DNA from: Marsupella aquatica
Lineage: Eukaryota > Plantae > Marchantiophyta
Assembly (NCBI GenBank): GCA_973895155.1
Contig: OZ316899.1
Location: 11,001,135-11,065,134 of the forward strand
Direction: 5' to 3'
Length of the DNA: 64,000 nt
Positions 14,405 through 37,161 of this stretch are shown piece after piece. Position numbers and translations under genes: made by a program. How positions within the stretch are numbered: the first letter of the stretch is position 1; every line of letters begins with the position of its first letter. The notes under the pieces are model-generated. The model did not search any database. It was given only the letters and a program-made list of their open reading frames with translations, and was not told where the DNA came from.

Positions 14405-15056
14405 CTGCGTAACCCGTGCAACAATTAGCGAGTTGATGAAATAGTCGGTCTCCCGGACACTCATTGACAACGTACACAAACCGGAAATGGATCCTCATCG
14501 CTGAAGAAAATTTGACAAACTTGGCATGGCTGAACGAAGAACAATATAAAGTGCGTGAAATCAACTAGGTGTTCAGTTATTGCGGTCATGGCGTCTGAGG
14601 GCTTCCCTTTTCCTACAACTACTGACAAGCCCATAAAGCACAATAAATTCATAAGGTAAGTCCTAAGAAATGTAGACTGCATATACTGTCTCCTTCCAAA
14701 AAATAAAAATTTCCTTAGATTATTTGTGTGCCCAATCTCGAATGTATGCCCTATTTTACTCACTACTTTACTTAATGTCCTCAGATGACCAGCTGATCCA
14801 TACATGAGACATGAGCGGCAGGCTAGGCAGTACTAATCTGCTAAGAAATTGTAGAACAACTACGGTATACAACAGACTGGCGCCATGAACCCTAGTATTC
14901 CATTTATTGCGGTACTACCTGCTAGTTTATGGGCTTCTAGTTGAAAAACTTTGCTAAGATTCTTAGTCCGAGGCTAAAATAGACGAATGAAGTGTGAGTT
15001 CACGGGAAGCCCAAGACAACAACATACAAAAAACCTCCGAGCCGATGCCGAGGAGA

Positions 15057-15207
15057 TGGAAAGGGACCCAGGCTGCATCGGTGTCCCCAATCCGGGCTTG
15101 GCAAAGCACACAATCTGAAGCTGCCTGGAAATCCCTGCCGTTGTGGGTGCAGCAGCCACAACCCCTGCTCCTGAAACAGCTCCTACTGCTGCCTGCACGG
15201 CGGCCAT
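15057..15207 (-). pseudogene. Possible orphan first exon encoding a plastid transit-peptide-like sequence
   Basis: MAAVQAAVGAVSGAGVVAAAPTTAGISRQLQIVCFAK...SAR followed by GT and a T-rich tract. Based on composition only. Confidence 0.35.
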
Positions 15208-15280
15208 TGCTCTATCCTCTCCTCCTCATAAACACTTGCTCCTCCTTCAAGTAGAAACTTGCCATTCTCCATTTCCTTAC

Positions 15281-15476
15281 CGGATTTGCCATAGGCGGCT
15301 TCCGCGGGATTCGCGCGGCTGGTCATGGTCGCAGCACCGGCGAAGAGGGCAATGGCCAATCTTTGGGAGACATTCGACGAAACCTTGGACTCAATAGCGT
15401 TCCGCCCCTCGCTGTTGCATTGCACGACACCAACCGACCTCGCCAAAACGGCCGATCTCACCTGAAGCGACACCAT
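15281..15476 (-). pseudogene. psbP: PsbP (OEE2) first-exon fragment
   Basis: VSQRLAIALFAGAATMTSRANPAEAAYGKS matches the PsbP lumen signal and 'A-x-A-AYGE' cleavage region. Followed by a GTAAG donor. No downstream PsbP exons seen. Confidence 0.72.
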
Positions 15477-17070
15477 AGGGGCACCATTGACAGCTCCAAG
15501 ACGACCCTTCCAGATGTCAAGACGCCCGTCGGGGGCGGCCGACCGGGCTCCGCTCTTTGTCGTAGGAGGAGGGGGAGGGGGAGGAGGAGGAAGGGGTGTA
15601 GCAAGGAGTTTAGGGGAATTGGAGTTGAGGGCCGCACGACGACGGCAACGTGGAGAGGAGGAGGAAGGGGCGAAGCAAGAAGTTTAGGGGAATTGGAGTT
15701 GAGGGCCGCATGACGACGACAACGTGGAGAGGAAGTCGGTTGGAGGAGGAGGAGGAGCAGCTGCGAGGGTGAGGAAGGAAAAATGCAGCACAGGGAAGAG
15801 CAGTGTCAAAATGAACAAGCCGGTGGGTTTAGAACTCGTGCAGCAGCAGCAACAACAACAGAATAATGCAATATGTTGTGCGGGCGCGATTCTCCGTGCG
15901 ACAGTTTTGCGTGTGTGTTTGAAGGACGGAATTTCATTAAACAATAGTTTCCAGGGGGTGCACAAACAAGATTGATCTCCGTCGCAGCGCAGTGCATTGC
16001 ATTGCATTGCAAGGGGTCGGTTGGCCAGCTACGTAGCCTACAGTGTTGTGATATGTGGAGTCGAGAGGGAGGAGTGGTCTGTTGGTTTGAACATATTGTT
16101 GCCCTGCATGCAGTCTTTCAGGATTTGAGTGTAGAGGAGAGATGTCCTATTGGCGTGAAGCTCCTATTTCGACGTTCGAGTGGCGGGGCGCGTTTATATG
16201 CTTGGAAGCTGCTGCTTCGTTGGATTGTTGTCGGGATTGAGCCATAGTACTTGATGTCGTTTCGATCTAGTGGATTGATTCATTCATTTTATGAAATATT
16301 ATAGAGAAGTTTCAGAAGTGCATACTGGAGGAGAAAAAAGTAATTCACTGTTGATGCACTGCCGCTGATTGGTGAGCTGGCTCCACCTCTATCAAGCTCA
16401 AAATAGAGAGCAGGAAGCTTCAATGCCAACTAGAGGTCGAACTGTTTCTAGAGTAGTGGTTTAGCGGGGAAAACCACCACGATCAGTTGATCCTTCTCCG
16501 AGGAATCCTGGACAATAGATGACATCTAGAGCAGTATAGTGAATTATTGTCGTCGAACAGCTGGCGTCTGCATGTTGCCTTCCTTCCCAACCTCCGGATC
16601 TTGCCTCATTGCTCTCTGTACATGTAATCTGTTGAGAGAGGTCTAGTTGTGCGTCGAAGTACGTTCTTGTTTCACATGTTGCATTATTGTCGTGGATACT
16701 GGACTCGCTGTGACGGGTACCCCGTCACGGGAAGTCACACATAACTGGTTGCAAAGGCCGATACCTTGTTAATAGTCAATGTAAATAAGCCATTTTTTAA
16801 TTTTTAGTTAATTCCGTCATTATAGGTTGATGATGCCCCAGGTGACTTTATATTCTTTCTCTCATAATAGTTCTAAGATTTGCGGCGACCTAAGTGGGCA
16901 AATATTTTGGGACCTTGAAACTAGCCAGGACCAGCCCCATAGGACTTACCGTTTTGCTTCAAGAGCTATTGTTGAGACCCCCATTGCAAAGTCAGGAGAG
17001 GGGGGGGTTTTTTTTAAATAAATCCCTCCTCAGGAGGGCGAGTCCCATTAGTGGCCGTCCGAGAGAAAGA

Positions 17071-17395
17071 GGGGCTGCCTCGCGAGCCCATAGGGCTGCG
17101 TGCCCGGGCGATTAATGGGGCTCCGCGAGCTGAAGGGGCTGCCTCGCGAGCCCATAGGGCTGCGTGCCCGGGCAATTAATGAGGCTCCGCGAGCTGAAGG
17201 AGCGCAAGCGAGCGGGGGGGGGGAGTTAAAGGGCCTCCCGCGAGCTGGGAGGATCACGCGAGCGGGGGGGAGTTAAAGGGCCTCCCGCGAGCTGGGAGGA
17301 TCACGCGAGCGGGGGGGAGTTAAAGGGCCTCCCGCGAGCTGGGAGGATCACGCGAGCGGGGGGGAGTTGAAGGGCCTCCCGCGAGCCGGGAGGAA
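17071..17395 (+). repeat. GC-rich tandem repeats in the LTR (two ~65-bp units, four ~47-bp units); copied at ~27765-28090
   Basis: Unit gcgagcgggggggagttaaagggcctcccgcgagctgggaggatcac starts at 17208, 17258, 17305 and 17352. Confidence 0.9.
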
Positions 17396-17816
17396 TGGCC
17401 GCGCGCCCTGCATAGGGCCGCGCGCAGGAGGACGCAAGGGTAAGGCCCGAGAAATGGGCCGGGGCGCATGGCGAAGGCGCCAGGAGTTTTTTCGGTTCTA
17501 TTTTTTTTCCTTCCTTTTTCTTTCCCTCTTCCTTTTGCACGACCCTCTCATTGCCGAAAGCAAAAACGGGGTTCTTCTCTCTCTTGCCGGAAGCTCTCTC
17601 CAGATTCTAATTATTTTTGAAGCTCTCTCTTTCATGGTGGATTAGTGGGGCTTGCTGGCGTCATTCTTCCAGGCATTAGTGGCGGCCGCACGGAGTAGTG
17701 ACGGGAAATTGAGAGAATTTAAGTGATCGGGCTACGGGGGCTGTTTCGGGCCAGGGAATTGACATTGCCACGGGTGACGGGATTGGTGATTGAGAAATTG
17801 ATTTCGGGATGCATGG

Positions 17817-19673
17817 ATGCTAGATCAACCAGAGTTTAGTGCGTCACGCATTCGGAGATACAAGGCTGCTTACCGTGACTACGTGGAGACTCGGATTACA
17901 CGGGAAAGGGAAGAGAGAGAAGTTATGATGAGCACGGGATTGGCAGCGGGTTCCTCACCGGTGGGTAGGAAGATTTTTCGTCGAATTTATCCCAAGACCT
18001 CCACCAAGGTGATGGAGGATTGTCGGAACATTTTCCAAGCCACCGGGCTTACAGAATTCATGAAGGTGGAGATTACCATCCCTTCAGGGAAGAGCTGGGA
18101 CATTGAGGCCGGGATGGAGTTCCGAACGGAGGGAATCTACTTTGAATGTCTCAAACGTGTAGTGCCCCATGTGGAGTTGGCTAAGCTATTGTTTCTTGAG
18201 AATCAGAAATTCTCATTCACACCTCGGAATATCAGGGGAGAACTCACGTTGAAAATGGTGGCCACTTGGGTGACCAATCCTACCTCCACCACCGCCATCC
18301 CTCTTTCTGCTGTCAAGGATGTTGAGTATAAGGGCTTCCTGGCCAAGGTGCATCAACGGGTTCTTGGCAACGTGCAATCCGGAGTGCTGAATGAGGAGCA
18401 TTTCGTGGTAGCTATGGACATCAAGAACTACCCAGCCCATGTGTACGGATGGTGGTGCTACGGATTGAAGAAGCTATTGGCCGCTGAGCCCGGGAGTGTG
18501 AAACCAGGTGGGGCTGTACATTTGATGGGGTCATTTGTATTGGCCAGGGCAGAAGGGTTGATTGGTTCTCCGGGGCATGAAGACACGGGATCATCTCTCA
18601 CCACGGAGATCCGGAGTATTGCCACTACCGTTTTAGGGAAGCTCACGGAGGAATCATTGTCTGCTGGTGGGGAGGATAATAGAGAAGAAGAGAACCAGGA
18701 GGATGATTGCACATTGGAGTGGCTTGAATCACTCGTGGGAGATCCGAAACAGCCTCTGGAATACAACATTCCGGATGTTTACTTGGCAGAGCTACGGGAT
18801 TTCAGAGAGGGAGTCCACGAGGGACTCAAGCTAGTCCACGCATTGAGGGAGTCTCTCAAGCACGCCACAGTCAAAGTAGAGACGTTAGAGCAGAGCATCC
18901 TGTCACTGAAGGAGGTGATCAAGACCAAGGAGCAGACCATTCATGAGAAGGTCAGGCACATCAATGCAGCTCACGTAGAGATCACCAACTTGAAGGGAGC
19001 TTTGTCCACCAAGGCCAAGGAAGCAGAAGAAGTAGGAGCGTTGAGGCAAGCATTGGCCAAAGAGAAGCAAAATTCTGGAGAAGTGATGGAGTGGAGGAAC
19101 CAGGTGGGAGCACTACGGAGTCAGGTGGCAGCCTTTGAGACACGAGCGAAGAGAAGTGAGGCCCTGAGTCTAGGGAAACGGAAGAGTCCCGGCACACCTG
19201 GCTCCACACTTTCCCCGGATGTGATCTCCCAAGCTATCGAGATGGTGGTGAAGGAGGTTAGTGGGAAGTATGGACCCTTGTTGGATGGAGCCAAGAAGAG
19301 TCAGGAGAAGAGTAAGAGCTTGGAGAAGAAGCTCCGGGAGGTACGGAAATCGTTACGGGAGGCTCAGGTCAGTACGGGGATGCCACCCAGGTCTGTCACC
19401 CCCGGGACTCCCATGGCCACGGGGCAAGTTCTACCGTTGGAGTTGCGGTCCGGAGAAGAGGCTACCCTCTGGAAGGACACAATTGGTGAGGGGTACATCA
19501 AGGCGTGGCAGGCCTTGGCTGCTTTGAGGAAGCGCGGGAGCAGCAGCACTAAGAGTACTCCGTCGAAGAAGAAGAAAAGTACGGTGGCACTCACTCCCGT
19601 GAGTGATGAGGAGGAGGACCACTCACGGGGCACAAGTCCGGGCACCGAGAGCGAAGAAGAAGAGGAGGATTAG
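17817..19673 (+). CDS. 618-aa LTR-encoded protein of unknown function (globular N half, coiled coil, basic/acidic tail), copy 1
   Basis: Intact ORF entirely inside the 5' LTR. NLS-like PSKKKK and an acidic C-terminus. Confidence 0.88.
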   Translation: MLDQPEFSASRIRRYKAAYRDYVETRITREREEREVMMSTGLAAGSSPVGRKIFRRIYPKTSTKVMEDCRNIFQATGLTEFMKVEITIPSGKSWDIEAGMEFRTEGIYFECLKRVVPHVELAKLLFLENQKFSFTPRNIRGELTLKMVATWVTNPTSTTAIPLSAVKDVEYKGFLAKVHQRVLGNVQSGVLNEEHFVVAMDIKNYPAHVYGWWCYGLKKLLAAEPGSVKPGGAVHLMGSFVLARAEGLIGSPGHEDTGSSLTTEIRSIATTVLGKLTEESLSAGGEDNREEENQEDDCTLEWLESLVGDPKQPLEYNIPDVYLAELRDFREGVHEGLKLVHALRESLKHATVKVETLEQSILSLKEVIKTKEQTIHEKVRHINAAHVEITNLKGALSTKAKEAEEVGALRQALAKEKQNSGEVMEWRNQVGALRSQVAAFETRAKRSEALSLGKRKSPGTPGSTLSPDVISQAIEMVVKEVSGKYGPLLDGAKKSQEKSKSLEKKLREVRKSLREAQVSTGMPPRSVTPGTPMATGQVLPLELRSGEEATLWKDTIGEGYIKAWQALAALRKRGSSSTKSTPSKKKKSTVALTPVSDEEEDHSRGTSPGTESEEEEED

Positions 19674-20804
19674 ATAGGCGTACGGACGTGGGTGTACGGC
19701 CTCCAGATTTCCAACATTTTAGTGGGGGGTCACTCATGGGCTTGTTGGGATGAGCTCGCGGAGCTGATTCCAACAAGAGGCGGCGCTCCTCAAACGGAGC
19801 CAGGATGAGCAAGTTATGGCCTGGAGAACTTATGTTTTTGCGGTACGGAAACGGCCATAACTCAGGCGTCTGAAGTCCGTTGAGGGAGCGACTTAGTGAT
19901 TCGGAAGCAGGAAAAGAAGAGCTATCCAGGGGTGAGCTCAGGTGTGCACTTGGAAGGGCACCTAGTTTCGGCCATTTTGGGGTGCCTCTCACTTTCAGGG
20001 TTCACGTGTACTGTTGGGGCGCCGTCGAAGGCACCGTCGGCCCCCTTGTTTTGGGTTTAGGGTTTTAGCAGCATGTGTGTGCCGCATGCTCCTCTTCAGT
20101 TTAAGGATTTCTCTTAGTGCAAGGTTTTAGCGGCGCCGCTAGGGTAGCCGCCACCGTTGTGACCCTGTGAGGGGTGCTTTGGTGTGATTTTTCAGTATTT
20201 AGGGGGATAGCCCCGAAGTAGTTAGGGGGACTCAGTGTGAAGTTAGCAAGGAGGGATAGAGTGGAGCCTGAGGAGTTTGAAAGCGTGTTCAGAGTAGTGA
20301 GGGGGAGCCATACTCATTGTCCGGAGAGGCAGGAGTTGAGTAGACGGCAGGAGGCCGGGTTACTCATGCAATGTGTATCGTTTTTCCCAAGAGATATGGA
20401 TCTGTACATTTGACTTGATGGGCTTTTGTTGTGTGTTCCTTCTCCCTTTTTCGCTTTCCGAATTGTGTTCTCCCGTTCTATGATTTGAAGAAACTTGCTT
20501 GGTTTGAGTCGGCCTTGTGAGTAGGGGTGGTGACAGCACTCTTTGGGTGACTCCGAGTGAAGGTGTAGTGGGGTAGTCGGCAGGACTTGATCAAAAGCTG
20601 TGGGGTGAGGGTAGTCGGTAGACTTGATCAAAACCTACATTTCCGGGAGCGGAAACCAAAATACTCATCCTGGTGTGAAAAGAATCCAAATAGCGTCCCT
20701 CCACGACCCCGTAATACGATACCAACGGTTTAAGCGAAGAAAAGTGCGGTTTGCACGTATTAACCGTTGGAGAGGCAAGTGACATAAGTGTGGTCTTTTG
20801 TTTT

Positions 20805-20822
20805 TGGCGCCGCTGCCGGGGA
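20805..20822 (+). promoter_or_regulatory. Primer-binding site, tRNA-Asp type
   Basis: TGGCGCCGCTGCCGGGGA versus the Athila-type PBS TGGCGCCGTTGCCGGGGA. Confidence 0.85.
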
Positions 20823-21039
20823 ATCCTTCTTCTTGTTTGACGACACGAAGGAGGGGAGCTACGTCTATTGGGAGTTCAAACCTATCAACCACAACGCAAC
20901 TTGCGACGGTTGATACGTGAGAAGTTTGTTGGTTACTTTGTTATTGTACGTCAACCACAACGCATCGTGCGACGGTTGATGTTTACAAATATTGCTTTCT
21001 GAGACATTGGTGTAAGTTTGGAATGCAGGTCTCAATGGG

Positions 21040-24000
21040 ATGCCGAGAGGGAGAAGGGGAGGTAGAGGAAGTCCCCAACACACACGTACCCCAAGATCAG
21101 AGCTAGAAGGGGGGCCCTCTTGGATTGGGACCAGACGACGAGTTGCTGCCGAAGAACGCTTACGGCTTGCAGAAGAGAGGAGGTTGCCACTGGTGCTGGA
21201 AGAACAAGTTGGTGTGCAACAGGAAGAGGCTCAACGTAATGAGGCCATATGCCCAGACGAAGAGCCAGACATAGATCACGAGCGAGAAGAAGGAGAGCCC
21301 TTTGTGTTGGTGCAGTCTGAGTTACAAAATCTGATCCCAGAGCTCACTGCATTGCCACAAATCATCTCACACCTATCATCGGTGCTGTTACCGGTGGCCC
21401 AACAAGCGCCATTACCACCTGTGTTGATACAGGCACCGGCTGCACCGATGGCAGCTGCACAACGTACCCGTGTTCAGTACGTACCCTTCAAGGGGAGACC
21501 AAAGGATGATCCAGACGAATGGATTGAGGAGTTTGAAGGGATTGCCGAAGCTAATGGGGAGTCTGCACATAAGCTCACTATCATTCCTGGAATGATGAGA
21601 GGGGAGGCAGGTCCATGGTTCATTTCGTTGTTGGCCAACGTGAAAGCTGATTGGGCTCTGTTCAAGCAAGCCTTCTTGAAGGAGTTCAGATCCATAGGAG
21701 TGGAGGCCACCTCACTATTAAAGGTGGGCCAACTCAGGATGAAGAAGAAGGAGTCATTACGGAGGTTTTTGCAAAGGTTCCAAAAGCTGGTACGTCGGAT
21801 CCAAGCCCGTACCGATGATGCTATGCGTCAAGCCTGGTTTGTGGCTGCCCTACCAAGCAAGATGGGGTTCTTTGTACGTCAAGCCAAGCCAACCACATTG
21901 GCTGAAGCTATTGCAGCAGCGGAGTCATACACCGCAGCTGATGCCACAAGCAAGCGTTGCCGAAGAAAGAAGCTGAAGCCGGTTGACAGTTCCTCCAGTG
22001 AGGAGTCGAGTGGATCTGATTCAGATAGTAGTGATGAATCTGAGGATTCTGAGAGTACTACAGAGTCAGACACTACGGAGTCAGAAGCTGAAAGACGAAG
22101 GAGGAAGAAGAAGAAGTTGTCAAAGAAAGTCAAGAAGTCCTCTCACCGTGAAGTGATACTACCCACGGTGGCCGTTACACCATTGTCTACGGCAAGACGC
22201 CTGAAGGAGCAAGAGGCCAGATATGATGAGCTGACGGAGCAAATGAAAGCGTTGAAAGTACATTTTGCCGGACTCAAACCTGAGAGGAGAAAAGTTCCGG
22301 TGGAGAGAGCCAATGTGTGGTGCACCAAGTGCATGAAGTTTGGTCATGCCCCGAAGGAGTGCCCAGCGGGAGAACCAGCCAAGGTTTTCCAAGTACGGGA
22401 GGAGGATGTTGAGGGGGCAAGCTACTCAAATCCTTCATATGCAGCGGAAGGGCCAATAGAGTACTTCATGGAGGAGCCACCAGAGGCCAACGTGTATAGT
22501 GTACAACCTCTCAACCCGGGACCACGGAGCATTCATGGAGTTTCAACAAACGCCGGAGCACCCGCATACTCCAACTATCCCAACGCTAACCCAGGGAATC
22601 GACCACCGTACCCTGGAGTGAGGAAGATCCCTATTTGTTACAATTGTAGAGTGGCGGGCCACTACGCTAATGTGTGCCCAGAGCCCACCCGTCAAGGCAA
22701 TGGAGATTTTGCCCGGCTGTGTCAACTATGCAAGGGGGAGGGTCATCTTGCACCACACTGCCCAACCTTGGAGGCGTTCAAGGCTCAACCGATTGGGGCA
22801 CAAGAGAAGAAGGGGCCGCCACCTCCTCTGAAAGAAGCTAGCGTCAACTTTCTCACCACGGAAGCAGTCGACACCCCTCTAATCACTAGAAGAGAAGAAA
22901 CCGTAGTGAACATTCCCAAGCAAAGGATGACCACCATAACGGAGGAGGTGGTACCGCTAGTCGTTGTAGTATCTCCAGTTGTTGAGATACCGGTGGTTGT
23001 TGTTGCAACATCTACGGAAGTTGAAGTTGCTAACCCCTCACCCCCAAGTCATGAGTGGACTCATGCTGAGAATCTACCGGAGGAAGACAGCGACGAGGAG
23101 AGAAGGCATTACTCTTGTTACCGAGTCTCCACTCAATCCGGCAAAAAGAAGGGCAAGTCCGAGCTCAAGCAGAAGTACAAGGAGGTGCATCAAGCTTCCA
23201 CATCGGGTACCTCACACGAACCGGAGGTGCCACCCATGGAGGATAGTGACTTTGATCGGGACAACCCCAAGTTGTTCTATCCGAAGGTGGGAGAAGAGGT
23301 ACGTAAGCAGTTGGAGGAGCTAGAAGCACAAGCCATGCAAGCGGCCATTGACAAAGACATGGAGGAGGCAAAGGCCAGAAAGAAAGCGGAGGAGAGGGTT
23401 GTTCGTTGGAAACCGGGAGAAGAGGTCATCCCACCCATACCTCCTGCAACCGCGTACAACATTGCTCAAGACATTCTGGATTGCCCAGTCAGTGCCACAA
23501 TTGGTCAACTATTACGGGATAGCTCCCTATACCGTCGCCAAGTCAAGGAGATTCTCATGAGGAGGAGACGTAGAAGAAGGTTACCCAAAGTTGGGGCTGA
23601 CCCCATACAAGTCAACTGGGTCACGGAGGATTTGGGTGCCCCAGAACTCACGGTGGACATCAATGGATGTGCAATACGGTTTGTACCGGTGGACGGGGGC
23701 TCGGGAGTCAACATCATGACTGAGGAGACGGCAAACCGGTTGGGGTATACAGAGTTAGAACCACCGGCACGTGCCATGAGGTTGGCTGATGGTGCACGGG
23801 TGGTGCCGTTGGGGTGTCTCACCAAGATTCCAACAATGATTGGGGGAAAATCTTTCCCCCTCAACTATTTGGTGATGCGACCCGTTCGGCCGTACGGTTT
23901 TCCCATTTTAATTGGCAGGCCATGGTTGTATGTGGCCAAGGTCACAAGTGATTGGGGCAAACGGCAGTTTCGGTTTGGTATCCCCACTATCACTATTCCA

Positions 24001-27000
24001 TGGTCAGCGGAGTCACCTCACGGGGAGACTACGACTATGGAGGAGGAATATGATTCAGAGGTCACCTCAGATGAAGACGAGGATGAAGTATACATGGTGA
24101 AACTGATTTCTCACCTCACGGAGGAAGATGTTTTTGGCCCCGGAGTTGCTACTCAAGAGCATGCAGTAGAGGAATCAGTTAGCCAAGTGCACGCTGTTCT
24201 AGAAGAGATGGAAGACGAGCGAAGCAAAATTGTGGAGGCTGAACCTCTAGAGATTCATGATAGGGAGGCAGAGGATCACCCCGAGGAGGTGGAAATGCAA
24301 GCCCACACGATCATGTTTGATGATGAGCAAAGAGAGCAGTTTTTGAATGACATCCTGGATGATGACTTTAGAGAGGAGCTATTGTCACATTACAAAGAAT
24401 CTGACGTTGAAGAAATAATGGCCCATGTGACAAAGGATCCACCTCCATCCCGACCAGACCAGGAGGAGAGTGATGCACCGGTGTATGGAGGGATGAGGCT
24501 CGCACGGTTGGAAGAAACCTTTGATGAGGAGACACGCAACAAGTTGGACGTGATCAGGCCGGAGCAGTACACAAAGGTGGAAGTGGGTGAGGGCAAGACA
24601 CTCAACATTGGTAGTAAGTTGGATGCTACGGAGCAACGCACGATTCAGGAATTGTTGAAAGAGTACCAAGACGTATTTGCGTGGAGCCACCAAGATTTGA
24701 AAGGAGTGCCACCTGAGTTTGGTGAGCACAGCATTGACCTGATGTCAGGAGCACGACCTGTGAGGCAACGCCAATACCGCCTCAACCCCAAATACTCACT
24801 CATGGTGAAGGAGGAGATTGACCGTTTGTTGGATGCAGGATTCATTTATCCGGTCATGCATAGTGAGTGGGTGTCACCCATCGTAATCGTGCCCAAGAAA
24901 AAGGGGCCAGACGGGAAGGTGAAAATACGGGTGTGCCAAGATTTTCGAAAGTTGAATGATGCGACCAAGAAGGATCACTACCCGCTACCGTTCACGGATA
25001 TCGTGTTGGACATGGTAGCAGGTTGGGAGATATACAGCTTCTTGGATGGCTACTCTGGGTACAACCAAATCTGGATACGGGAGGAGGACCAACTCAAGAC
25101 GGCTTTCACAACAGAGTGGGGGATTTTTGCATTCCGGAGAATGCCTTTTGGGTTGTGCAATGCCCCTGGCATGTTCCAACGGCTCATGATGAATATATTT
25201 CATGACTTTTTACGCAGGTTCTTGGAGATCTTTATTGATGACTTTGCTGTCTACGGCAAACGAGTCAAGCATCCGGAACACTTACGGTTGACTTTTCAGC
25301 GGTGCCGGGAGACTTGCCTGAAGCTGCATCCGGAGAAATGTTTCTTTGGAATTGAGGAGGGAATCCTATTGGGCCACAAAGTGTCTGCACGAGGGATTGA
25401 AGTTGATCGTGAGAAGGTCGCCGTGTGGGTAGCAGTCTCATTTCCCAAGAATGTGAAGGAAGTGAGAGGGTTCTTGGGGTGTGTTGGCTACTACCGACGC
25501 TTCATCAAAGACTTTGCCAAGGTAGCCATGCCACTCACTTCCATGTTGAAAAAAGGAAGTGAGTTTGAACCTACTCCTTCCCGTCAGGCTGCTTTTGATG
25601 AATTGAAGAAACGATTGCTAGAGGCCCCCGTGCTCATTACGCCCAATTGGAATAAGGAATTCCATGTTTACGTAGACGTATCAGGATTTTGCATCGGTGC
25701 CGTTTTGAGTCAGTTAGATGATGATGGAAGAGACCATCCCATCTACTTTGCCAGTAGGCAGTTGGCCCCGGCAGAGAAAAACTACTCACCCACCGATAGG
25801 GAGGCACTTGGTATCATCTACGCTTGTAAGAAGTATCGTCATTATTTGTTGGGGTACAAGGTTGTGTTCCACACGGATCACAACAGCTTGAAATACATGG
25901 TCAACAAGCCAGATCTGTCCGGGAGAATTGCACGTTGGGTTTTGTTGCTACAAGAGTTCAACTATGAGGTGAGAGTAAGATCGGGGAAGAGTCATAGCAA
26001 TGCAGACTTCTTCTCCCGTATTGAGGGAGCATCTGACTCCCAGGAGATTGATGATCGGTTCCCGGATGAGGAAGTGTTCAGCGTGAATACAGAGGCCACT
26101 ACTTGGTATGGAGAAATTTTGGAATTTCTCCGCACGGCTAGAGTTCCCTCACGTTTGGGCCCGGAGAGAGCAGCAGTGTTTTTGCGTAAGACAGGTCCCT
26201 ACTTGCTTGTGAAGGGAGTACTTCACAAGTACGGCATGGATGGCCGACTTCGTCGTTGTTTGGAGGAAGCGGAGATACGTACAGTCATGGCAGCATTACA
26301 TGAGGAGGAAGCTGGTGGCCACTTTGCACGGGAGACCACCGCAAGGAAAATACTAGATGCTGGATATTGGTGGCCAACTCTCTTTCGGGATGTACACCGG
26401 TACATCCAGCGATGTGATCCGTGCCAGCGTCAAGGCAAACCAGGGCCCTCCTCACGACACCCATTGGTGCCCATACTTCCTCTTGCACCCTTTGAGAAGT
26501 GGGGGGTGGACTTCATTGGCCCTTTCACTCCCATCACACGAAGAGGGAGGAAGCGCTACATCATTCTTGCAACGGACTATGCCACCAAGTGGGTGGAGGC
26601 CCGAGCTACTGCCAAGGATGATGCCAACACCACGGCACGTTTTTTGTATGAGCAGATTTTTACACGATTTGGTCCACCATTGGAGTTGGTAAGTGACAGG
26701 GGTACTCACTTCCTCAATCATACGATTGAACGTTTGACAGAGAACTACTTGATCTCACATAGGAAGACCACTCCGTACCACCCTCGAGCCAACGGGCTCA
26801 CTGAGAGAGCCAACGGGATCATGGGCAAGATCCTCAACAAAACGGTATCCGCTCACAAGACCGATTGGGATTTGAAGTTGTTGGCTGCCACTTACGCTTA
26901 CAACCTGGCTCACAAGACTACCACGGGCCACAGCCCCTATTTCCTTGTGTTTGGACAACACTCTCTTGTGCCGGTGGAATTTGAGGTTCCAACCATTCGA

Positions 27001-27438
27001 ATCCTAACACGGGAAAGGGAAGGGGCAGAAGAAAGTGTCGCTTCACGGATCCAACAGTTGGAGCAACTCACGGAGACACGAGAAGAGGCTTTGACACATA
27101 CGGAGCAGGAGCAAGGCAAACGCAAGTCACATTACGATTCCCGTCTCCGTCGTGTGTCCATTGAGGAGGGAGATTTGGTGCTCCTCTACGATAGCCGCTT
27201 CATGCATTTCCCCGGGAAGTTGCATACACGGTGGATGGGACCCTACGTAGTGGATGCCGTCTACTCCAACGGCTCGGTTCAACTCAAGACATTGGAGGGG
27301 CAACTACTCAACACACGGATCAATCAAGAGCGCCTAAAGAAGTACTACACGGAGGAAGAGTATGGTGCTCGCGGGGGCGCTTCGCAATTAAGAGAGGAGC
27401 TATGTGACGGGTACCCCGTCACGGGAAGTCACACATAA
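21040..27438 (+). CDS. Gag-Pol polyprotein, 2132 aa (gag, three CCHC knuckles, protease, RT, RNase H, integrase)
   Basis: CTKCMKFGHAPKEC, CYNCRVAGHYANVC, CQLCKGEGHLAPHC; VDGGSG; CQDFRKLN, LDGYSGYNQI, MPFGLCNAP, FIDD; YVDVS...TDH; GHF...CDPCQ, WGVDF, SDRG, NGLTER, WMGPY. Order PR-RT-RH-IN. Confidence 0.98.
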   Translation: MPRGRRGGRGSPQHTRTPRSELEGGPSWIGTRRRVAAEERLRLAEERRLPLVLEEQVGVQQEEAQRNEAICPDEEPDIDHEREEGEPFVLVQSELQNLIPELTALPQIISHLSSVLLPVAQQAPLPPVLIQAPAAPMAAAQRTRVQYVPFKGRPKDDPDEWIEEFEGIAEANGESAHKLTIIPGMMRGEAGPWFISLLANVKADWALFKQAFLKEFRSIGVEATSLLKVGQLRMKKKESLRRFLQRFQKLVRRIQARTDDAMRQAWFVAALPSKMGFFVRQAKPTTLAEAIAAAESYTAADATSKRCRRKKLKPVDSSSSEESSGSDSDSSDESEDSESTTESDTTESEAERRRRKKKKLSKKVKKSSHREVILPTVAVTPLSTARRLKEQEARYDELTEQMKALKVHFAGLKPERRKVPVERANVWCTKCMKFGHAPKECPAGEPAKVFQVREEDVEGASYSNPSYAAEGPIEYFMEEPPEANVYSVQPLNPGPRSIHGVSTNAGAPAYSNYPNANPGNRPPYPGVRKIPICYNCRVAGHYANVCPEPTRQGNGDFARLCQLCKGEGHLAPHCPTLEAFKAQPIGAQEKKGPPPPLKEASVNFLTTEAVDTPLITRREETVVNIPKQRMTTITEEVVPLVVVVSPVVEIPVVVVATSTEVEVANPSPPSHEWTHAENLPEEDSDEERRHYSCYRVSTQSGKKKGKSELKQKYKEVHQASTSGTSHEPEVPPMEDSDFDRDNPKLFYPKVGEEVRKQLEELEAQAMQAAIDKDMEEAKARKKAEERVVRWKPGEEVIPPIPPATAYNIAQDILDCPVSATIGQLLRDSSLYRRQVKEILMRRRRRRRLPKVGADPIQVNWVTEDLGAPELTVDINGCAIRFVPVDGGSGVNIMTEETANRLGYTELEPPARAMRLADGARVVPLGCLTKIPTMIGGKSFPLNYLVMRPVRPYGFPILIGRPWLYVAKVTSDWGKRQFRFGIPTITIPWSAESPHGETTTMEEEYDSEVTSDEDEDEVYMVKLISHLTEEDVFGPGVATQEHAVEESVSQVHAVLEEMEDERSKIVEAEPLEIHDREAEDHPEEVEMQAHTIMFDDEQREQFLNDILDDDFREELLSHYKESDVEEIMAHVTKDPPPSRPDQEESDAPVYGGMRLARLEETFDEETRNKLDVIRPEQYTKVEVGEGKTLNIGSKLDATEQRTIQELLKEYQDVFAWSHQDLKGVPPEFGEHSIDLMSGARPVRQRQYRLNPKYSLMVKEEIDRLLDAGFIYPVMHSEWVSPIVIVPKKKGPDGKVKIRVCQDFRKLNDATKKDHYPLPFTDIVLDMVAGWEIYSFLDGYSGYNQIWIREEDQLKTAFTTEWGIFAFRRMPFGLCNAPGMFQRLMMNIFHDFLRRFLEIFIDDFAVYGKRVKHPEHLRLTFQRCRETCLKLHPEKCFFGIEEGILLGHKVSARGIEVDREKVAVWVAVSFPKNVKEVRGFLGCVGYYRRFIKDFAKVAMPLTSMLKKGSEFEPTPSRQAAFDELKKRLLEAPVLITPNWNKEFHVYVDVSGFCIGAVLSQLDDDGRDHPIYFASRQLAPAEKNYSPTDREALGIIYACKKYRHYLLGYKVVFHTDHNSLKYMVNKPDLSGRIARWVLLLQEFNYEVRVRSGKSHSNADFFSRIEGASDSQEIDDRFPDEEVFSVNTEATTWYGEILEFLRTARVPSRLGPERAAVFLRKTGPYLLVKGVLHKYGMDGRLRRCLEEAEIRTVMAALHEEEAGGHFARETTARKILDAGYWWPTLFRDVHRYIQRCDPCQRQGKPGPSSRHPLVPILPLAPFEKWGVDFIGPFTPITRRGRKRYIILATDYATKWVEARATAKDDANTTARFLYEQIFTRFGPPLELVSDRGTHFLNHTIERLTENYLISHRKTTPYHPRANGLTERANGIMGKILNKTVSAHKTDWDLKLLAATYAYNLAHKTTTGHSPYFLVFGQHSLVPVEFEVPTIRILTREREGAEESVASRIQQLEQLTETREEALTHTEQEQGKRKSHYDSRLRRVSIEEGDLVLLYDSRFMHFPGKLHTRWMGPYVVDAVYSNGSVQLKTLEGQLLNTRINQERLKKYYTEEEYGARGGASQLREELCDGYPVTGSHT
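27390..27399 (+). promoter_or_regulatory. Polypurine tract
   Basis: AAGAGAGGAG lies 3 nt before the 3' LTR. Confidence 0.75.
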
Positions 27439-30400
27439 CTGGTTGCAAAGGCCGATACCTTGTTAATAGTCAATGTAAATAAGCCATTTTTTAATTTTTA
27501 GTTAATTCCGTCATTATAGGTTGATGATGCCCCAGGTGACTTTATATTCTTTCTCTCATAATAGTTCTAAGATTTGCGGCGACCTAAGTGGGCAAATATT
27601 TTGGGACCTTGAAACTAGCCAGGACCAGCCCCATAGGACTTACCGTTTTGCTTCAAGAGCTATTGTTGAGACCCCCATTGCAAAGTCAGGAGAGGGGGGG
27701 GTTTTTTTTAAATAAATCCCTCCTCAGGAGGGCGAGTCCCATTAGTGGCCGTCCGAGAGAAAGAGGGGCTGCCTCGCGAGCCCATAGGGCTGCGTGCCCG
27801 GGCGATTAATGGGGCTCCGCGAGCTGAAGGGGCTGCCTCGCGAGCCCATAGGGCTGCGTGCCCGGGCAATTAATGAGGCTCCGCGAGCTGAAGGAGCGCA
27901 AGCGAGCGGGGGGGGGGGAGTTAAAGGGCCTCCCGCGAGCTGGGAGGATCACGCGAGCGGGGGGGAGTTAAAGGGCCTCCCGCGAGCTGGGAGGATCACG
28001 CGAGCGGGGGGGAGTTAAAGGGCCTCCCGCGAGCTGGGAGGATCACGCGAGCGGGGGGGAGTTGAAGGGCCTCCCGCGAGCCGGGAGGAATGGCCGCGCG
28101 CCCTGCATAGGGCCGCGCGCAGGAGGACGCAAGGGTAAGGCCCGAGAAATGGGCCGGGGCGCATGGCGAAGGCGCCAGGAGTTTTTTCGGTTCTATTTTT
28201 TTTTCCTTCCTTTTTCTTTCCCTCTTCCTTTTGCACGACCCTCTCATTGCCGAAAGCAAAAACGGGGTTCTTCTCTCTCTTGCCGGAAGCTCTCTCCAGA
28301 TTCTAATTATTTTTGAAGCTCTCTCTTTCATGGTGGATTAGTGGGGCTTGCTGGCGTCATTCTTCCAGGCATTAGTGGCGGCCGCACGGAGTAGTGACGG
28401 GAAATTGAGAGAATTTAAGTGATCGGGCTACGGGGGCTGTTTCGGGCCAGGGAATTGACATTGCCACGGGTGACGGGATTGGTGATTGAGAAATTGATTT
28501 CGGGATGCATGGATGCTAGATCAACCAGAGTTTAGTGCGTCACGCATTCGGAGATACAAGGCTGCTTACCGTGACTACGTGGAGACTCGGATTACACGGG
28601 AAAGGGAAGAGAGAGAAGTTATGATGAGCACGGGATTGGCAGCGGGTTCCTCACCGGTGGGTAGGAAGATTTTTCGTCGAATTTATCCCAAGACCTCCAC
28701 CAAGGTGATGGAGGATTGTCGGAACATTTTCCAAGCCACCGGGCTTACAGAATTCATGAAGGTGGAGATTACCATCCCTTCAGGGAAGAGCTGGGACATT
28801 GAGGCCGGGATGGAGTTCCGAACGGAGGGAATCTACTTTGAATGTCTCAAACGTGTAGTGCCCCATGTGGAGTTGGCTAAGCTATTGTTTCTTGAGAATC
28901 AGAAATTCTCATTCACACCTCGGAATATCAGGGGAGAACTCACGTTGAAAATGGTGGCCACTTGGGTGACCAATCCTACCTCCACCACCGCCATCCCTCT
29001 TTCTGCTGTCAAGGATGTTGAGTATAAGGGCTTCCTGGCCAAGGTGCATCAACGGGTTCTTGGCAACGTGCAATCCGGAGTGCTGAATGAGGAGCATTTC
29101 GTGGTAGCTATGGACATCAAGAACTACCCAGCCCATGTGTACGGATGGTGGTGCTACGGATTGAAGAAGCTATTGGCCGCTGAGCCCGGGAGTGTGAAAC
29201 CAGGTGGGGCTGTACATTTGATGGGGTCATTTGTATTGGCCAGGGCAGAAGGGTTGATTGGTTCTCCGGGGCATGAAGACACGGGATCATCTCTCACCAC
29301 GGAGATCCGGAGTATTGCCACTACCGTTTTAGGGAAGCTCACGGAGGAATCATTGTCTGCTGGTGGGGAGGATAATAGAGAAGAAGAGAACCAGGAGGAT
29401 GATTGCACATTGGAGTGGCTTGAATCACTCGTGGGAGATCCGAAACAGCCTCTGGAATACAACATTCCGGATGTTTACTTGGCAGAGCTACGGGATTTCA
29501 GAGAGGGAGTCCACGAGGGACTCAAGCTAGTCCACGCATTGAGGGAGTCTCTCAAGCACGCCACAGTCAAAGTAGAGACGTTAGAGCAGAGCATCCTGTC
29601 ACTGAAGGAGGTGATCAAGACCAAGGAGCAGACCATTCATGAGAAGGTCAGGCACATCAATGCAGCTCACGTAGAGATCACCAACTTGAAGGGAGCTTTG
29701 TCCACCAAGGCCAAGGAAGCAGAAGAAGTAGGAGCGTTGAGGCAAGCATTGGCCAAAGAGAAGCAAAATTCTGGAGAAGTGATGGAGTGGAGGAACCAGG
29801 TGGGAGCACTACGGAGTCAGGTGGCAGCCTTTGAGACACGAGCGAAGAGAAGTGAGGCCCTGAGTCTAGGGAAACGGAAGAGTCCCGGCACACCTGGCTC
29901 CACACTTTCCCCGGATGTGATCTCCCAAGCTATCGAGATGGTGGTGAAGGAGGTTAGTGGGAAGTATGGACCCTTGTTGGATGGAGCCAAGAAGAGTCAG
30001 GAGAAGAGTAAGAGCTTGGAGAAGAAGCTCCGGGAGGTACGGAAATCGTTACGGGAGGCTCAGGTCAGTACGGGGATGCCACCCAGGTCTGTCACCCCCG
30101 GGACTCCCATGGCCACGGGGCAAGTTCTACCGTTGGAGTTGCGGTCCGGAGAAGAGGCTACCCTCTGGAAGGACACAATTGGTGAGGGGTACATCAAGGC
30201 GTGGCAGGCCTTGGCTGCTTTGAGGAAGCGCGGGAGCAGCAGCACTAAGAGTACTCCGTCGAAGAAGAAGAAAAGTACGGTGGCACTCACTCCCGTGAGT
30301 GATGAGGAGGAGGACCACTCACGGGGCACAAGTCCGGGCACCGAGAGCGAAGAAGAAGAGGAGGATTAGATAGGCGTACGGACGTGGGTGTACGGCCTCC

Positions 30401-31480
30401 AGATTTCCAACATTTTAGTGGGGGGTCACTCATGGGCTTGTTGGGATGAGCTCGCGGAGCTGATTCCAACAAGAGGCGGCGCTCCTCAAACGGAGCCAGG
30501 ATGAGCAAGTTATGGCCTGGAGAACTTATGTTTTTGCGGTACGGAAACGGCCATAACTCAGGCGTCTGAAGTCCGTTGAGGGAGCGACTTAGTGATTCGG
30601 AAGCAGGAAAAGAAGAGCTATCCAGGGGTGAGCTCAGGTGTGCACTTGGAAGGGCACCTAGTTTCGGCCATTTTGGGGTGCCTCTCACTTTCAGGGTTCA
30701 CGTGTACTGTTGGGGCGCCGTCGAAGGCACCGTCGGCCCCCTTGTTTTGGGTTTAGGGTTTTAGCAGCATGTGTGTGCCGCATGCTCCTCTTCAGTTTAA
30801 GGATTTCTCTTAGTGCAAGGTTTTAGCGGCGCCGCTAGGGTAGCCGCCACCGTTGTGACCCTGTGAGGGGTGCTTTGGTGTGATTTTTCAGTATTTAGGG
30901 GGATAGCCCCGAAGTAGTTAGGGGGACTCAGTGTGAAGTTAGCAAGGAGGGATAGAGTGGAGCCTGAGGAGTTTGAAAGCGTGTTCAGAGTAGTGAGGGG
31001 GAGCCATACTCATTGTCCGGAGAGGCAGGAGTTGAGTAGACGGCAGGAGGCCGGGTTACTCATGCAATGTGTATCGTTTTTCCCAAGAGATATGGATCTG
31101 TACATTTGACTTGATGGGCTTTTGTTGTGTGTTCCTTCTCCCTTTTTCGCTTTCCGAATTGTGTTCTCCCGTTCTATGATTTGAAGAAACTTGCTTGGTT
31201 TGAGTCGGCCTTGTGAGTAGGGGTGGTGACAGCACTCTTTGGGTGACTCCGAGTGAAGGTGTAGTGGGGTAGTCGGCAGGACTTGATCAAAAGCTGTGGG
31301 GTGAGGGTAGTCGGTAGACTTGATCAAAACCTACATGTCCGGGAGCGGAAACCAAAATACTCATCCTGGTGTGAAAAGAATCCAAATAGCGTCCCTCCAC
31401 GACCCCGTAATACGATACCAACGGTTTAAGCGAAGAAAAGTGCGGTTTGCACGTATTAACCGTTGGAGAGGCAAGTGACA
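27403..31480 (+). repeat. 3' LTR (4078 bp)
   Basis: Differs from the 5' LTR by two 1-nt homopolymer differences and one substitution that I could see (20641 T / 31337 G). Confidence 0.97.
28513..30369 (+). CDS. 618-aa LTR-encoded protein, copy 2
   Basis: Translation identical to 17817-19673. Confidence 0.88.
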   Translation: MLDQPEFSASRIRRYKAAYRDYVETRITREREEREVMMSTGLAAGSSPVGRKIFRRIYPKTSTKVMEDCRNIFQATGLTEFMKVEITIPSGKSWDIEAGMEFRTEGIYFECLKRVVPHVELAKLLFLENQKFSFTPRNIRGELTLKMVATWVTNPTSTTAIPLSAVKDVEYKGFLAKVHQRVLGNVQSGVLNEEHFVVAMDIKNYPAHVYGWWCYGLKKLLAAEPGSVKPGGAVHLMGSFVLARAEGLIGSPGHEDTGSSLTTEIRSIATTVLGKLTEESLSAGGEDNREEENQEDDCTLEWLESLVGDPKQPLEYNIPDVYLAELRDFREGVHEGLKLVHALRESLKHATVKVETLEQSILSLKEVIKTKEQTIHEKVRHINAAHVEITNLKGALSTKAKEAEEVGALRQALAKEKQNSGEVMEWRNQVGALRSQVAAFETRAKRSEALSLGKRKSPGTPGSTLSPDVISQAIEMVVKEVSGKYGPLLDGAKKSQEKSKSLEKKLREVRKSLREAQVSTGMPPRSVTPGTPMATGQVLPLELRSGEEATLWKDTIGEGYIKAWQALAALRKRGSSSTKSTPSKKKKSTVALTPVSDEEEDHSRGTSPGTESEEEEED

Positions 31481-32700
31481 CTCGCGTAGACTCAAGGTTG
31501 TCGGTCGTATGAACTGTGAGCGATAGAAAATGTTCCTCGATACTTTCCAAGGGGGGCATATCATAGTTTTGGATTGAGCGCTCTCTTTCAATCTTCTTGG
31601 AGGATTTTGATTGATTCCTCTGCTTTGATTTTTTGGGAGACATCTAAATGATTGTTAGATATTTAGGTCTTCATTGCAGGTAACTAGTCATTGTGATATT
31701 TTCCAGTTGGAACTCTCGGGCTGTACTCAAGCTACAATTCCGGTGCAGGAATGGAGCACCGACCTTAACGTGATCAATAACCATGTAAAAAAGCTTATCT
31801 TCTACAAGCAAGAAGTCTTCTCAGCTAGCAATCAAAGTCAAAGGCTATCCCGGCCATCCGATGGAGAGGATGAATGATTCAAGAGAGGGCTGGCTGGAAA
31901 GTGCCTAACAAGCATGCAAGTTTGGTCAAACTTGGATCTCAATCACTCCCATGATGACTCTTTCATCCCCTAGTGCCCTCCCCTCCCTCTCAACGGCCCG
32001 GATTGACAAAGGTTGTCTTCTAAAGCACATTTATTATTCTGAAGAGCGCAGGGTTGATTATTGTTGGAGAGCATGGGGAAAAGGAAATAACAAATGCGCA
32101 AACTTGTCACTTTTGATATGGAGGAAGGAGGACGAGGAACGATGAGGAAAGAAGAGGAAGAAGACTTGGCTACGCCTGGTGCAATGATTGTGAGTTTGTC
32201 ACTCATTGTAGCATTCATGCTCCTTTGCTGCTGATTTGCGATCATTGCCTGCAATGTATGGATTGTACTAGTGCCTTGGGCTCCAACACGCTTTACATCA
32301 TTCTTTCCATCTTTAATGTAGATATTTCAAGGGCAGGCAAATACTTTAAGGCCCTACCTAACATGCATTCAAAATACGCTTACGGAAGCCGCAGAGGCGG
32401 ACATCAGTTTGAATAATGTTTTAAAAGATTTCAGAATAATGTGTGCAAATCCTATTTTAGAAACCCTTTCACACATTTGAGCATCACGGAGGATTGTGAG
32501 TAGTTTACAAGGTTATATTGCGTTCTGGACTTCTTCACTTGTCATACTTGCTTGGGGACTATCAGTACTAGCTTGGAATGCTCCTGCATCGATGACACGA
32601 CCGATGTGCAGGGAAACATATATCAAAGGATTTGCTGGTGAGAGCTCAAGCATGGGTATGTGATGTGATTTATTAGTGCAACCAAAGGATTGGTCTATAA

Positions 32701-36820: not shown

Positions 36821-36821
36821 A

Positions 36822-37161
36822 TAGCGACGGAGACAGGAAACAAGTAAACAGGAAATTTTTTTCCTGCTTTTAATATGCTGTTACCAGGAAAAAATCACTG
36901 TTACCAGGAAAAATGACAATTTAAAAATGTCTCCTAAAACATATTATTTCCAAAAAAAATTAACAATGCAATATTTTTTGCTAGCTTTGGGCGCTACTAT
37001 TAGCAGCGCCGGGCGCTAGCAAAAAAAACTGGTCGACCAAAAAACAAACTTTTTTTTTTCTCAAAAAAAAATTTCAAAAAAAATTTTCCACCTATTTTCC
37101 TATTAGCAGTTTTTTTCTGTTACCAGTTTCTGTTATTAAATCCTGTTTCCTGTTTGCTGTC
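36822..37161. mobile_element. MITE-like insertion with imperfect terminal inverted repeats
   Basis: Left GACGGAGACAGGAAACAAG, right CCTGTTTCCTGTTTGCTGTC, AT-rich interior. It interrupts coding-like sequence. No TSD verified. Confidence 0.55.

Follow-up and report, generated by a model that had tools for sequence, protein, structure and literature searches.

Plant long terminal repeats (LTRs) are usually treated as non-coding, and the surveys consulted assign extra open reading frames (ORFs) only to the 5′ or 3′ side of the polyprotein, or call them internal. In Athila elements, as described in the portions of PMC6317226 available to us, a sense accessory ORF lies right after pol, and the supplement gives 166 ATHILA ORF-1 matches in the 3′-forward position. 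The accessible part of PMC2410132 indicates that this third ORF has long been labelled env-like, and that of PMC13547354 gives the Athila domain and VANC as predicted to oligomerise via coiled coils. The accessory ORFs of Retand/Grande and Ogre (TRP28, PMD, SMC-like) pair a small conserved domain with an SMC-like coiled coil, as does the protein described below, but they are internal and mostly antisense, in Tat elements with an additional RNase H (PMC11963269, PMC7264820). A regulatory role has been proposed for accessory ORFs (PMC11963269, PMC7264820), as have movement or chaperone roles, and the accessory protein of Grande (gene23) is nuclear and has its own promoter (PMC7264820). Retrosat2, RIRE3 and RIRE8 (Tekay) have LTRs above 3 kb and carry an additional ORF without a known function, as far as the available text of PMC3485330 goes; these are chromoviruses, however, and their ORF0 occurs once per element, upstream of gag-pol and outside the LTRs. 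The non-chromoviruses Phygy (moss) and Selgy (spikemoss), likewise of non-seed plants, resemble the present element in a polyprotein that takes up almost all of the internal region, but the corresponding part of PMC6317226 describes elements of 4.4–10 kb with a 4-bp target-site duplication (TSD) and a tRNA-Trp or tRNA-Ala primer-binding site (PBS), and reports no extra ORFs.

Our literature search found no plant precedent for an LTR-resident gene. The best working model may be an analogue, the sag gene of the vertebrate retrovirus MMTV, whose product is a membrane protein. In MMTV a complete ORF (sag/naf) lies in the LTR and so in both repeats, and a second U3 promoter drives it, according to the part of PMC9412291 at our disposal. 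The system presented here differs in being a plant Gypsy element with a soluble protein of 618 residues and a U3 position that is only deduced, and no sequence relation to sag is expected. One apparent precedent was rejected: in PMC1560396, the phrase "gene within the LTR" means within the element.

The window (the whole stretch of DNA analysed, 64,000 nucleotides of Marsupella aquatica) contains a Ty3/Gypsy element of 14.8 kb delimited by a direct repeat, 16709–20784 and 27403–31480, with 99.93% identity over 4,078 columns. The initial annotation described it as intact and TSD-flanked, and its TG...CA ends with CTCGC on both sides bear this out. The element is made up as follows:

16704..16708, plus strand: left target-site duplication, CTCGC
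16709..20784, plus strand: 5′ LTR, 4,076 bp, TG...CA
20785..20804, plus strand: 20-nt spacer separating the LTR from the PBS-like motif (4–7 nt in the relatives L001 and L002)
20805..20822, plus strand: PBS-like 18-mer, identical in L001 and L002
21021..21029, plus strand: splice-acceptor-like candidate, 11 nt before the gag ATG (simple pattern only)
21040..27438, plus strand: single gag-PR-RT-RH-INT ORF, 2,132 aa
27390..27399, plus strand: polypurine tract (PPT), 3 nt before the 3′ LTR
27403..31480, plus strand: 3′ LTR, 4,078 bp, TG...CA
31481..31485, plus strand: right target-site duplication, CTCGC

The PBS-like 18-mer may match tRNA-Asp, as in the Athila type. The post-LTR spacer has no match longer than 9 nt to the rest of the element that could point to self-priming, and Rfam models gave no match in the range 14000–34000. 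The LTR has no nucleotide similarity to the other LTR-like pieces of the window. A 3.7-kb candidate solo LTR at 44078–47795 has a TSD, but the scan yields 2.25 chance hits per range and the candidate was not counted.

The order gag-PR-RT-RH-INT, the TG..CA LTRs, the TSD, the PBS and the PPT place the element in Ty3/Gypsy. It is a non-chromovirus: no Chromo domain occurs among the 13 Pfam families at E ≤ 0.1, and little of the polyprotein follows the integrase tail. Only RT_RNaseH families match in Pfam, with no second RNase H of the kind that defines Tat (Ogre, Retand, TatI–III). The missing additional RNase H, the 5-bp TSD and the single-ORF polyprotein are those of Athila, whereas the large non-coding region or extra ORF that Athila has between pol and the 3′ LTR is absent. 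The TSD also separates the element from Phygy and Selgy, in which it is 4 bp rather than 5 bp. In an RT-RH tree without labelled Athila, Phygy and Selgy references, the element stands beside Marchantia sequences, apart from the angiosperm group. Overall, the element is Athila-like, sharing with Athila also the lack of a chromodomain, a PBS motif of putative Athila type, a sense accessory ORF downstream of pol and a language-model lead to ATHILA ORF-1/Transposase_32 (see below). A difference from Athila, whose accessory ORF is internal to a long post-pol region in the available portions of PMC6317226, is that the ORF here lies in both LTRs.

The two LTRs differ at three sites, namely 1-nt homopolymer indels at 17213 and 17500 and a single substitution, T/G, at 20641/31337. 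Such near identity is what an assembly duplication would produce, and the ORF could also be a neutral passenger without function. Read depth speaks against the former. In contigs of the identical variant, the LTR has a depth of 1,524–1,572 in run X1, versus 687–719 for the internal region, and of 5,631–6,330 versus 2,729–2,754 in X3; the flanks have 33–55 in public contigs. The joint between pol and the LTR is present in contigs of X1, X3 and X7, the last being a small share of its run. Because LTR depth is about twice the internal depth and public contigs from three runs contain this joint, the 4-kb repeat is not an assembly artefact, a doubt that the initial annotation had itself raised. Together with the TSD, PBS and PPT in their places, and with the open homologues and purifying selection described below, this largely refutes the artefact or passenger explanation, which we hold to be very improbable. 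The element is recently inserted and belongs to a young, multi-copy family, which, judging from the one substitution between its LTRs, is probably active.

The same uninterrupted ORF of 618 codons occupies both LTRs, as had been claimed: the two proteins are identical, and none of the LTR differences falls in it. Its features are the following (those of the protein are given for copy 1):

17817..19673, plus strand: LTR-resident ORF, 618 aa, copy 1
28513..30369, plus strand: LTR-resident ORF, 618 aa, copy 2, identical protein
17964..18551, plus strand: conserved N-terminal globular domain, about aa 50–245, common to the proteins P0001–P0007 and those of Calypogeia
18813..19373, plus strand: predicted coiled-coil region, heptad repeats at about aa 333–450 and 492–519
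19527..19577, plus strand: basic motif RKR...KKKK, aa 571–587, a predicted bipartite nuclear localisation signal (NLS), followed by an acidic tail

The longest stop-free run in the LTR spans 623 codons, a length reached by none of 1,000 dinucleotide shuffles (mean 168, maximum 363). Codon usage of the ORF correlates with that of pol (r = 0.73; 0.06–0.47 for the other five frames), and the 12 indels listed, of 97, all lie outside it. Homologues have open frames at 28–59% identity and include two proteins of Calypogeia fissa (596 and 670 aa) with the N-terminal domain and a coiled-coil tail. An unindexed protein search returned six proteins at E ≤ 0.001, among which P0001 matches at 43% over aa 1–179 with an identical start; a word-index search with aa 1–340 retained none of 7,936 candidates, and viral contigs contained no relative of the LTR ORF or of pol. 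We regard it as almost certain that the LTR contains a conserved, real gene. The gene is wholly within the LTR and is therefore duplicated at each replication round, as was foreseen. Its survival in solo LTRs follows logically, but LTR-to-internal depth ratios of 2.0–2.3 leave room for few solos.

The family suggested at the outset, Transposase_32 or the ATHILA ORF, fared less evenly: it is the top language-model lead, but no Pfam profile match accompanies it. No Pfam family scores above its cutoff on the LTR ORF, the profiles PF03078 and PF20167 included, and PF04195 and PF10536 do not match either. In the Atlas language model, the LTR ORF and the ORF of L001 share their two top clusters (scores 0.83–0.84 versus 0.91), where ATHILA (PF03078) annotates 17% of members and Transposase_32 (PF20167) 56%. 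A score of 0.84, with 117–119 of 256 features shared, is a lead only, since one shuffle in three scores 0.8 or more. The AF2 models, with pLDDT values of 43 and 39, could not be used, Foldseek against viral structures gave no match at E ≤ 0.001, and the PDB sequence search gave a single chance match (E 0.41). On balance we lean towards remote homology between the LTR ORF and ATHILA-ORF1/Transposase_32.

A metagenome scan identified at least nine loci from at least 589 matches. Among the matches listed, a homologue of the 618-aa protein is encoded at none of the loci, and L001 and L002 alone extend into an LTR. Both are 71–72% identical to the element in RT-RH and group with it in one clade of the RT-RH tree (support 0.997). 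Their LTRs, which are partial, were defined by TG..CA inverted ends and the same PBS. A sense ORF begins 514 and 660 bp into the 3′ LTR, 184–231 bp after a TATA-like site, and over 69 codons a pS of 0.76 (saturated) versus a pN of 0.30 indicates purifying selection on the relatives' LTR ORF. Since L001 and L002 also begin a sense ORF inside the 3′ LTR, the LTR-resident layout is likely to be clade-wide. The genes themselves may be unrelated, because comparing profiles of the LTR ORF and of the L001-type ORFs gave no significant match (hhalign probability 0.1–0.2, hmmsearch E > 0.2).

The initial annotation had the gene captured in the LTR, which is probably wrong. Relatives of the same clade have LTR ORFs and the Athila sense ORF adjoins pol (PMC6317226, in the available portions), so the LTR boundary, i.e., the PPT, appears more likely to have shifted relative to an old element gene than a host gene to have been captured. 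The accessory gene that angiosperm Athila has between pol and the PPT would here be on the LTR side of the PPT, the site of plus-strand priming having moved in one direction or the other. No relic PPT stood out downstream of the LTR ORF. More tentatively, one could imagine an undescribed clade of Athila-related bryophyte elements in which the LTR is a self-contained promoter-gene-poly(A) cassette and every LTR, solos included, codes for a factor that activates in trans or counters silencing. The cassette would be homologous to the Athila "env-like" ORF, would never have encoded an envelope, and the layouts would differ only in the position of the PPT.

For transcription signals, the LTR offers these candidates:

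17070..17394, plus strand: GC-rich tandem arrays (64 bp × 2.0; 47 bp × 3.8) 5′ of the ORF, with a putative enhancer-like role
17469..17620, plus strand: T-rich/pyrimidine patch where transcription of the LTR gene might start, as an upstream promoter candidate
20194..20202, plus strand: TATA-like 9-mer 3′ of the ORF, a weak, post hoc candidate for the genomic RNA's core promoter
20399..20490, plus strand: U-rich tract that may serve polyadenylation and mark the end of R, with about 300 bp of LTR to follow

We slightly favour a gene in U3 with two promoters, sequence by itself being compatible with U3, R or U5. The LTR would then comprise the enhancer repeats and pyrimidine patch (P1), the ORF and a core LTR of about 1.1 kb, the latter with the TATA-like site near 20194, R extending to the U-rich poly(A) region near 20400–20500, and a U5 of about 300 bp. 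Each LTR would be a self-contained transcription unit with an mRNA of about 3 kb, separate from the genomic RNA. In a fair test the downstream promoter candidate did not stand out: the best windows lay elsewhere and 13 of 100 shuffles were as good. The strongest promoter-like anatomy, CpG-rich repeats with the pyrimidine patch, is upstream of the ORF, as expected if a single upstream promoter placed the ORF in a giant R (or U5), where it would be the leading cistron of the genomic RNA. Splicing would then provide the RNA for gag-pol, or a second promoter close to the LTR end would supply one that serves translation but is not copied. The acceptor-like site before the gag ATG fits this arrangement, as does a pyrimidine-AG 5–8 nt before that ATG in L001 and L002, although such splice sites come from a simple pattern only. 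L002, moreover, has an AATAAA about 1.36 kb upstream of the LTR end and a TATAAAA just 151 bp upstream of it, so that the poly(A)-like signal precedes the last TATA box, contrary to the order expected of a simple promoter-R-poly(A) core. Against the single promoter, it requires strong-stop DNA above 3 kb and an R of 2–3 kb, far beyond usual sizes, and the stretch of 1.1 kb downstream of the ORF is as long as an ordinary LTR. The summed depth of related sequences in X3 is also about twice as high on 19670–20830 as on the ORF, as if the core LTR were common to ORF-less or ORF-divergent kin. We consider the single promoter the less probable arrangement; a nuclear regulator would be compatible with it too.

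The protein may form oligomers, bind DNA or chromatin and act as a trans-activator or anti-silencing factor. We hold a nuclear regulator to be about as probable as not, and we give even chances to the reading as a whole, an Athila-like element whose U3 accessory gene has its own promoter and encodes a nuclear coiled-coil regulator of the element's own copies. The protein appears soluble rather than envelope-like, in agreement with the earlier prediction: hydropathy and sequon scans, in place of dedicated predictors, revealed no hydrophobic segment (best 19-residue Kyte–Doolittle mean 1.09), no signal peptide-like N-terminus and no N-glycosylation sequon. Long coiled coils would suit a scaffold, and a helper in structure or trafficking (associated with particles, targeting integration or acting in cell-to-cell movement) would accord with the env-like label of the Athila third ORF (in the accessible part of PMC2410132) and with the movement or chaperone proposals (PMC7264820). 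The NLS-like motif, the acidic tail and the lack of membrane or secretion marks disfavour such a helper, and a separate LTR-borne transcript would better suit a regulator acting in trans; we view the helper as unlikely. The LTR gene offers a clean test of the long-open question of what Athila/Tat accessory ORFs do, with gene, promoter and likely target on one 4-kb piece and bryophyte models that can be transformed. A clade with a conserved LTR gene would also alter annotation: each copy would contribute a pair of host-like "unnamed protein" models, and a solo LTR would count as a gene.

Finally, the gag-pol ORF crosses the purine tract, and its 11 last codons and stop occupy 36 nt of the 3′ LTR, leaving an internal region of 6,618 bp without a post-pol region. 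Pol thus runs straight through the PPT with no spacer, as first noted, but this is not special: in the part of PMC3059260 available to us, the pol ORF of CRM group A also runs into the 3′ LTR. The CRM extension encodes a conserved targeting motif, whereas that of the present element is 11 codons long, and pol of its closest relatives stops earlier.

The window holds a single long repeat (self-alignment), whose two copies (16709-20784 and 27403-31480; 99.93% identity) are the LTRs of the Athila-like element; both begin with TG and end with CA, and CTCGC lies on each side of the element. The copies differ at three places: one is a substitution, the other two are indels of 1 nt in homopolymers. 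The one substitution in 4,076 bp places the insertion about 12-25 thousand years ago under assumed rates of 1e-8 to 5e-9. None of the three differences falls in the ATG-initiated ORF of 618 codons, which starts 1,108 bp past the beginning of each LTR and ends 1,111 bp short of its end (17817-19673 and 28513-30369). The initial annotation was thus right to describe this ORF as uninterrupted in both LTRs. In the 6,618-bp internal region, a 20-nt gap precedes a PBS-like 18-mer at 20805; the rest is occupied by a single 2,132-aa ORF (21040-27438) with gag, CCHC, protease, RT, RNase H and integrase domains; a Pfam search found neither a chromodomain nor a second RNase H in it. This gag-pol ORF passes through the purine tract (27390-27399) to a stop codon 36 nt within the 3' LTR, in agreement with the earlier description of pol entering the LTR with no post-pol spacer.

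That the 4-kb repeat might be an assembly duplication had been envisaged at the outset. All or part of the stretch occurs in 8 of 12 listed public sequencing runs, none recorded as RNA, and four of these (X1, X2, X3 and X7) were compared, all as contigs. In contigs with the identical variant, LTR and internal depths were 1,524-1,572 and 687-719 for X1, and 5,631-6,330 and 2,729-2,754 for X3, i.e., a ratio of 2.0-2.3; flank depth was 33-55. The joint between the end of pol and the LTR start is present in X1, X3 and X7 and absent in X2, and no contig piece among those listed extends across the whole element. The doubled LTR depth and the joint speak against a duplication: the LTR pair is no assembly artefact. 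Read roughly, since contig depth does not measure copy number and the source sample may be among the runs, these depths indicate some tens of near-identical copies and few solo LTRs. In 15800-27400, X2 and X7 have contigs identical or nearly so to the element under organism labels B and D, at low depth and with little or no flank cover; contamination, relabelling and horizontal transfer are the alternatives. For the flank at 15878-16600 there is also another version, an allele or paralogue that differs by about 5% and makes up half of the X1 depth and all of the X3 depth. At 19670-20830, summed X3 contig depth is roughly double that over the ORF, a hint of kin that have only the core LTR in common.

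Several observations show that the LTR ORF is a real gene. Its stop-free run of 623 codons was reached in none of 1,000 shuffles (maximum 363), and its codon usage correlates with that of pol at r=0.73, vs 0.06-0.47 for the other five frames. Contigs carry 97 indels relative to the element, and the 12 displayed all lie outside the ORF. Residues 1-265, searched against 1.84 billion representatives, gave six matches: the database protein P0001 (43% identity across aa 1-179, with the N-terminus in common), four fragments at 49-59% and, at 30%, a 596-aa Calypogeia fissa protein model. A profile search (7,992 longer candidates) added a second C. fissa homologue, and both C. fissa proteins combine the N-domain with a coiled-coil tail. 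Besides a globular N-domain (~aa 50-245) and coiled coils, the 618-aa protein has two acidic parts, a linker and the tail, together with a stretch rich in S/T-P and a basic motif of the bipartite type. A sequence scan found no hydrophobic segment or sequon in it; it is therefore not env-like, which fits the soluble, non-envelope protein first proposed. Out-of-frame ATGs at 17809 and 17813, shortly 5' of the ORF's own ATG (17809-17819), could lower its translation.

The nearest named pol relatives are from Riccia (55-58%) and Marchantia (46%), and angiosperm matches spanning the whole region reach 42-43%; these identities point to a bryophyte host. A metagenome scan revealed at least nine loci, of which two among those listed, contigs L001 and L002, span pol and both LTR junctions. 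Their RT-RH is 71-72% identical to that of the element, with which they form one clade (support 0.997) separate from angiosperm sequences. This FastTree phylogeny, with an arthropod sequence as its root, comprises 118 rows from 123 subjects and the query; it excludes rows that cover fewer than 370 of 411 residues, both Riccia proteins among them, and is built without lineage-labelled references. In L001 and L002, pol stops 62-90 bp ahead of the LTR, whose start is an inverted match of the LTR end preceding the same PBS. A sense ORF starts 514 and 660 bp, respectively, into the 3' LTR and is open at the contig edge (285 and 69 codons visible), each contig reaching part of an LTR only. Between the two ORFs, pS is 0.76 (saturated) and pN 0.30 over 69 codons. 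The architecture of the LTR-resident ORF and its recurrence in relatives are solid. Sequence and profile comparisons found no significant similarity between the L001/L002-type ORF and the 618-aa protein. The suggested kinship with ATHILA ORF/Transposase_32 proteins is a language-model lead: in the Atlas, both ORF types have the same two top clusters, one with ATHILA on 17% of its members and one with Transposase_32 on 56%, at scores of 0.91 for L001 and 0.83-0.84, a lead only, for the 618-aa ORF, and Pfam gave nothing above cutoff for the LTR ORF proteins. The PBS-like motif lies 20 nt past the LTR's CA in the element (20785-20804; 19 nt in about half of the X3 depth), in contrast to 4-7 nt in L001/L002; PMC6317226 describes a PBS search window of 0-5 bp from the LTR. 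Such a gap would leave integrase an unusually long end to trim. L002 also has a 219-bp direct repeat (81%) within the 3' part of its LTR (L002:180-677).

As a working likeness, the element resembles an Athila element with an MMTV-sag-like gene in its LTR (for MMTV, see PMC9412291). It is not assigned to Athila proper, given the missing internal post-pol region and an RT-RH tree without lineage labels, nor, by comparison with PMC6317226, to Phygy, Selgy or Tat. The entry of pol into the LTR is probably incidental, because it is known in CRM group A (PMC3059260) and absent from L001, L002 and the database proteins P0008 and P0011. Searches of a full-text collection with few subscription papers turned up no plant element that carries a complete ORF in each of its LTRs; the element table and FASTA of PMC6317226 could conceal cases. 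The LTR-resident 618-codon gene itself is real; its expression, U3 position, family and function we infer.

Tandem arrays rich in CpG, together with a pyrimidine patch, lie 5' of the ORF, and L001/L002 have a TATA-like site 184-231 bp ahead of theirs. Three further signals bear on the layout:

20194, TATA-like 9-mer, downstream of the ORF
20399-20490, U-rich tract, downstream of the ORF
21021-21029, acceptor-like site

The 9-mer, picked post hoc, has four occurrences in the window, at three distinct sites that are all LTR-like, vs 0.64 expected; an independent motif test did not pick out the copy at 20194 (13 of 100 shuffles equally good). By a slight preference, we read the ORF as a gene within U3 that would be driven by a promoter of its own and lie upstream of an ordinary 1.1-kb core LTR. 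A single upstream promoter with a giant R, gag-pol being spliced or expressed from a separate promoter, is the rival arrangement, and both the acceptor-like site and the order of signals in L002 support it. Under the U3 arrangement and its rival alike, each LTR would be a complete expression unit.

The simplest origin would be that the PPT shifted past a gene the element already had, because the 3'-forward ORF-1 of Athila (166 such ATHILA-ORF-1 matches in PMC6317226) stands in the same order relative to pol as the ORF copy of the 3' LTR does here. We propose that the 618-aa protein may be a nuclear protein that regulates the element in trans, by analogy only, to systems described elsewhere: the Grande accessory protein, nuclear and with its own promoter (PMC7264820), Retand TRP28, with predicted DNA binding (PMC11963269), the Athila domain and VANC, predicted to form coiled-coil pentamers (PMC13547354), and PMD, structurally like VANC (bioRxiv 10.1101/2024.09.27.615353).

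Other related pieces occur in the window. On the minus strand, 44078-47795 is a candidate 3.7-kb solo LTR (TSD no better than chance) with a degenerate ORF from 47142, preceded by TATAAAA, that has a coiled coil and a domain like the L001 LTR ORF (by eye and alignment). Its post-ORF part is similar to an ORF-less LTR-like piece at 48690-49940 (E 2.5e-7, 4.6e-6). A broken fragment at 36115-36873 also resembles the L001 ORF (31% over 131 aa, E 4e-18). The broken ORF at 4826-7759, with a coiled coil and a domain like that of the 47142 ORF (24%, E 2e-17), lies directly upstream of a CACTA Transposase_21/DUF4218/DUF4216 gene (9386-12698) and may be part of that DNA transposon or of a nested LTR. 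A decayed integrase-like stretch with a PHD finger (40321-40800), a Plant_tran (PF04827) transposase fragment (41713-42114) and a decayed gag-protease of a related Gypsy element (52300-53972; 38% to the element's pol over 131 aa) were also observed.
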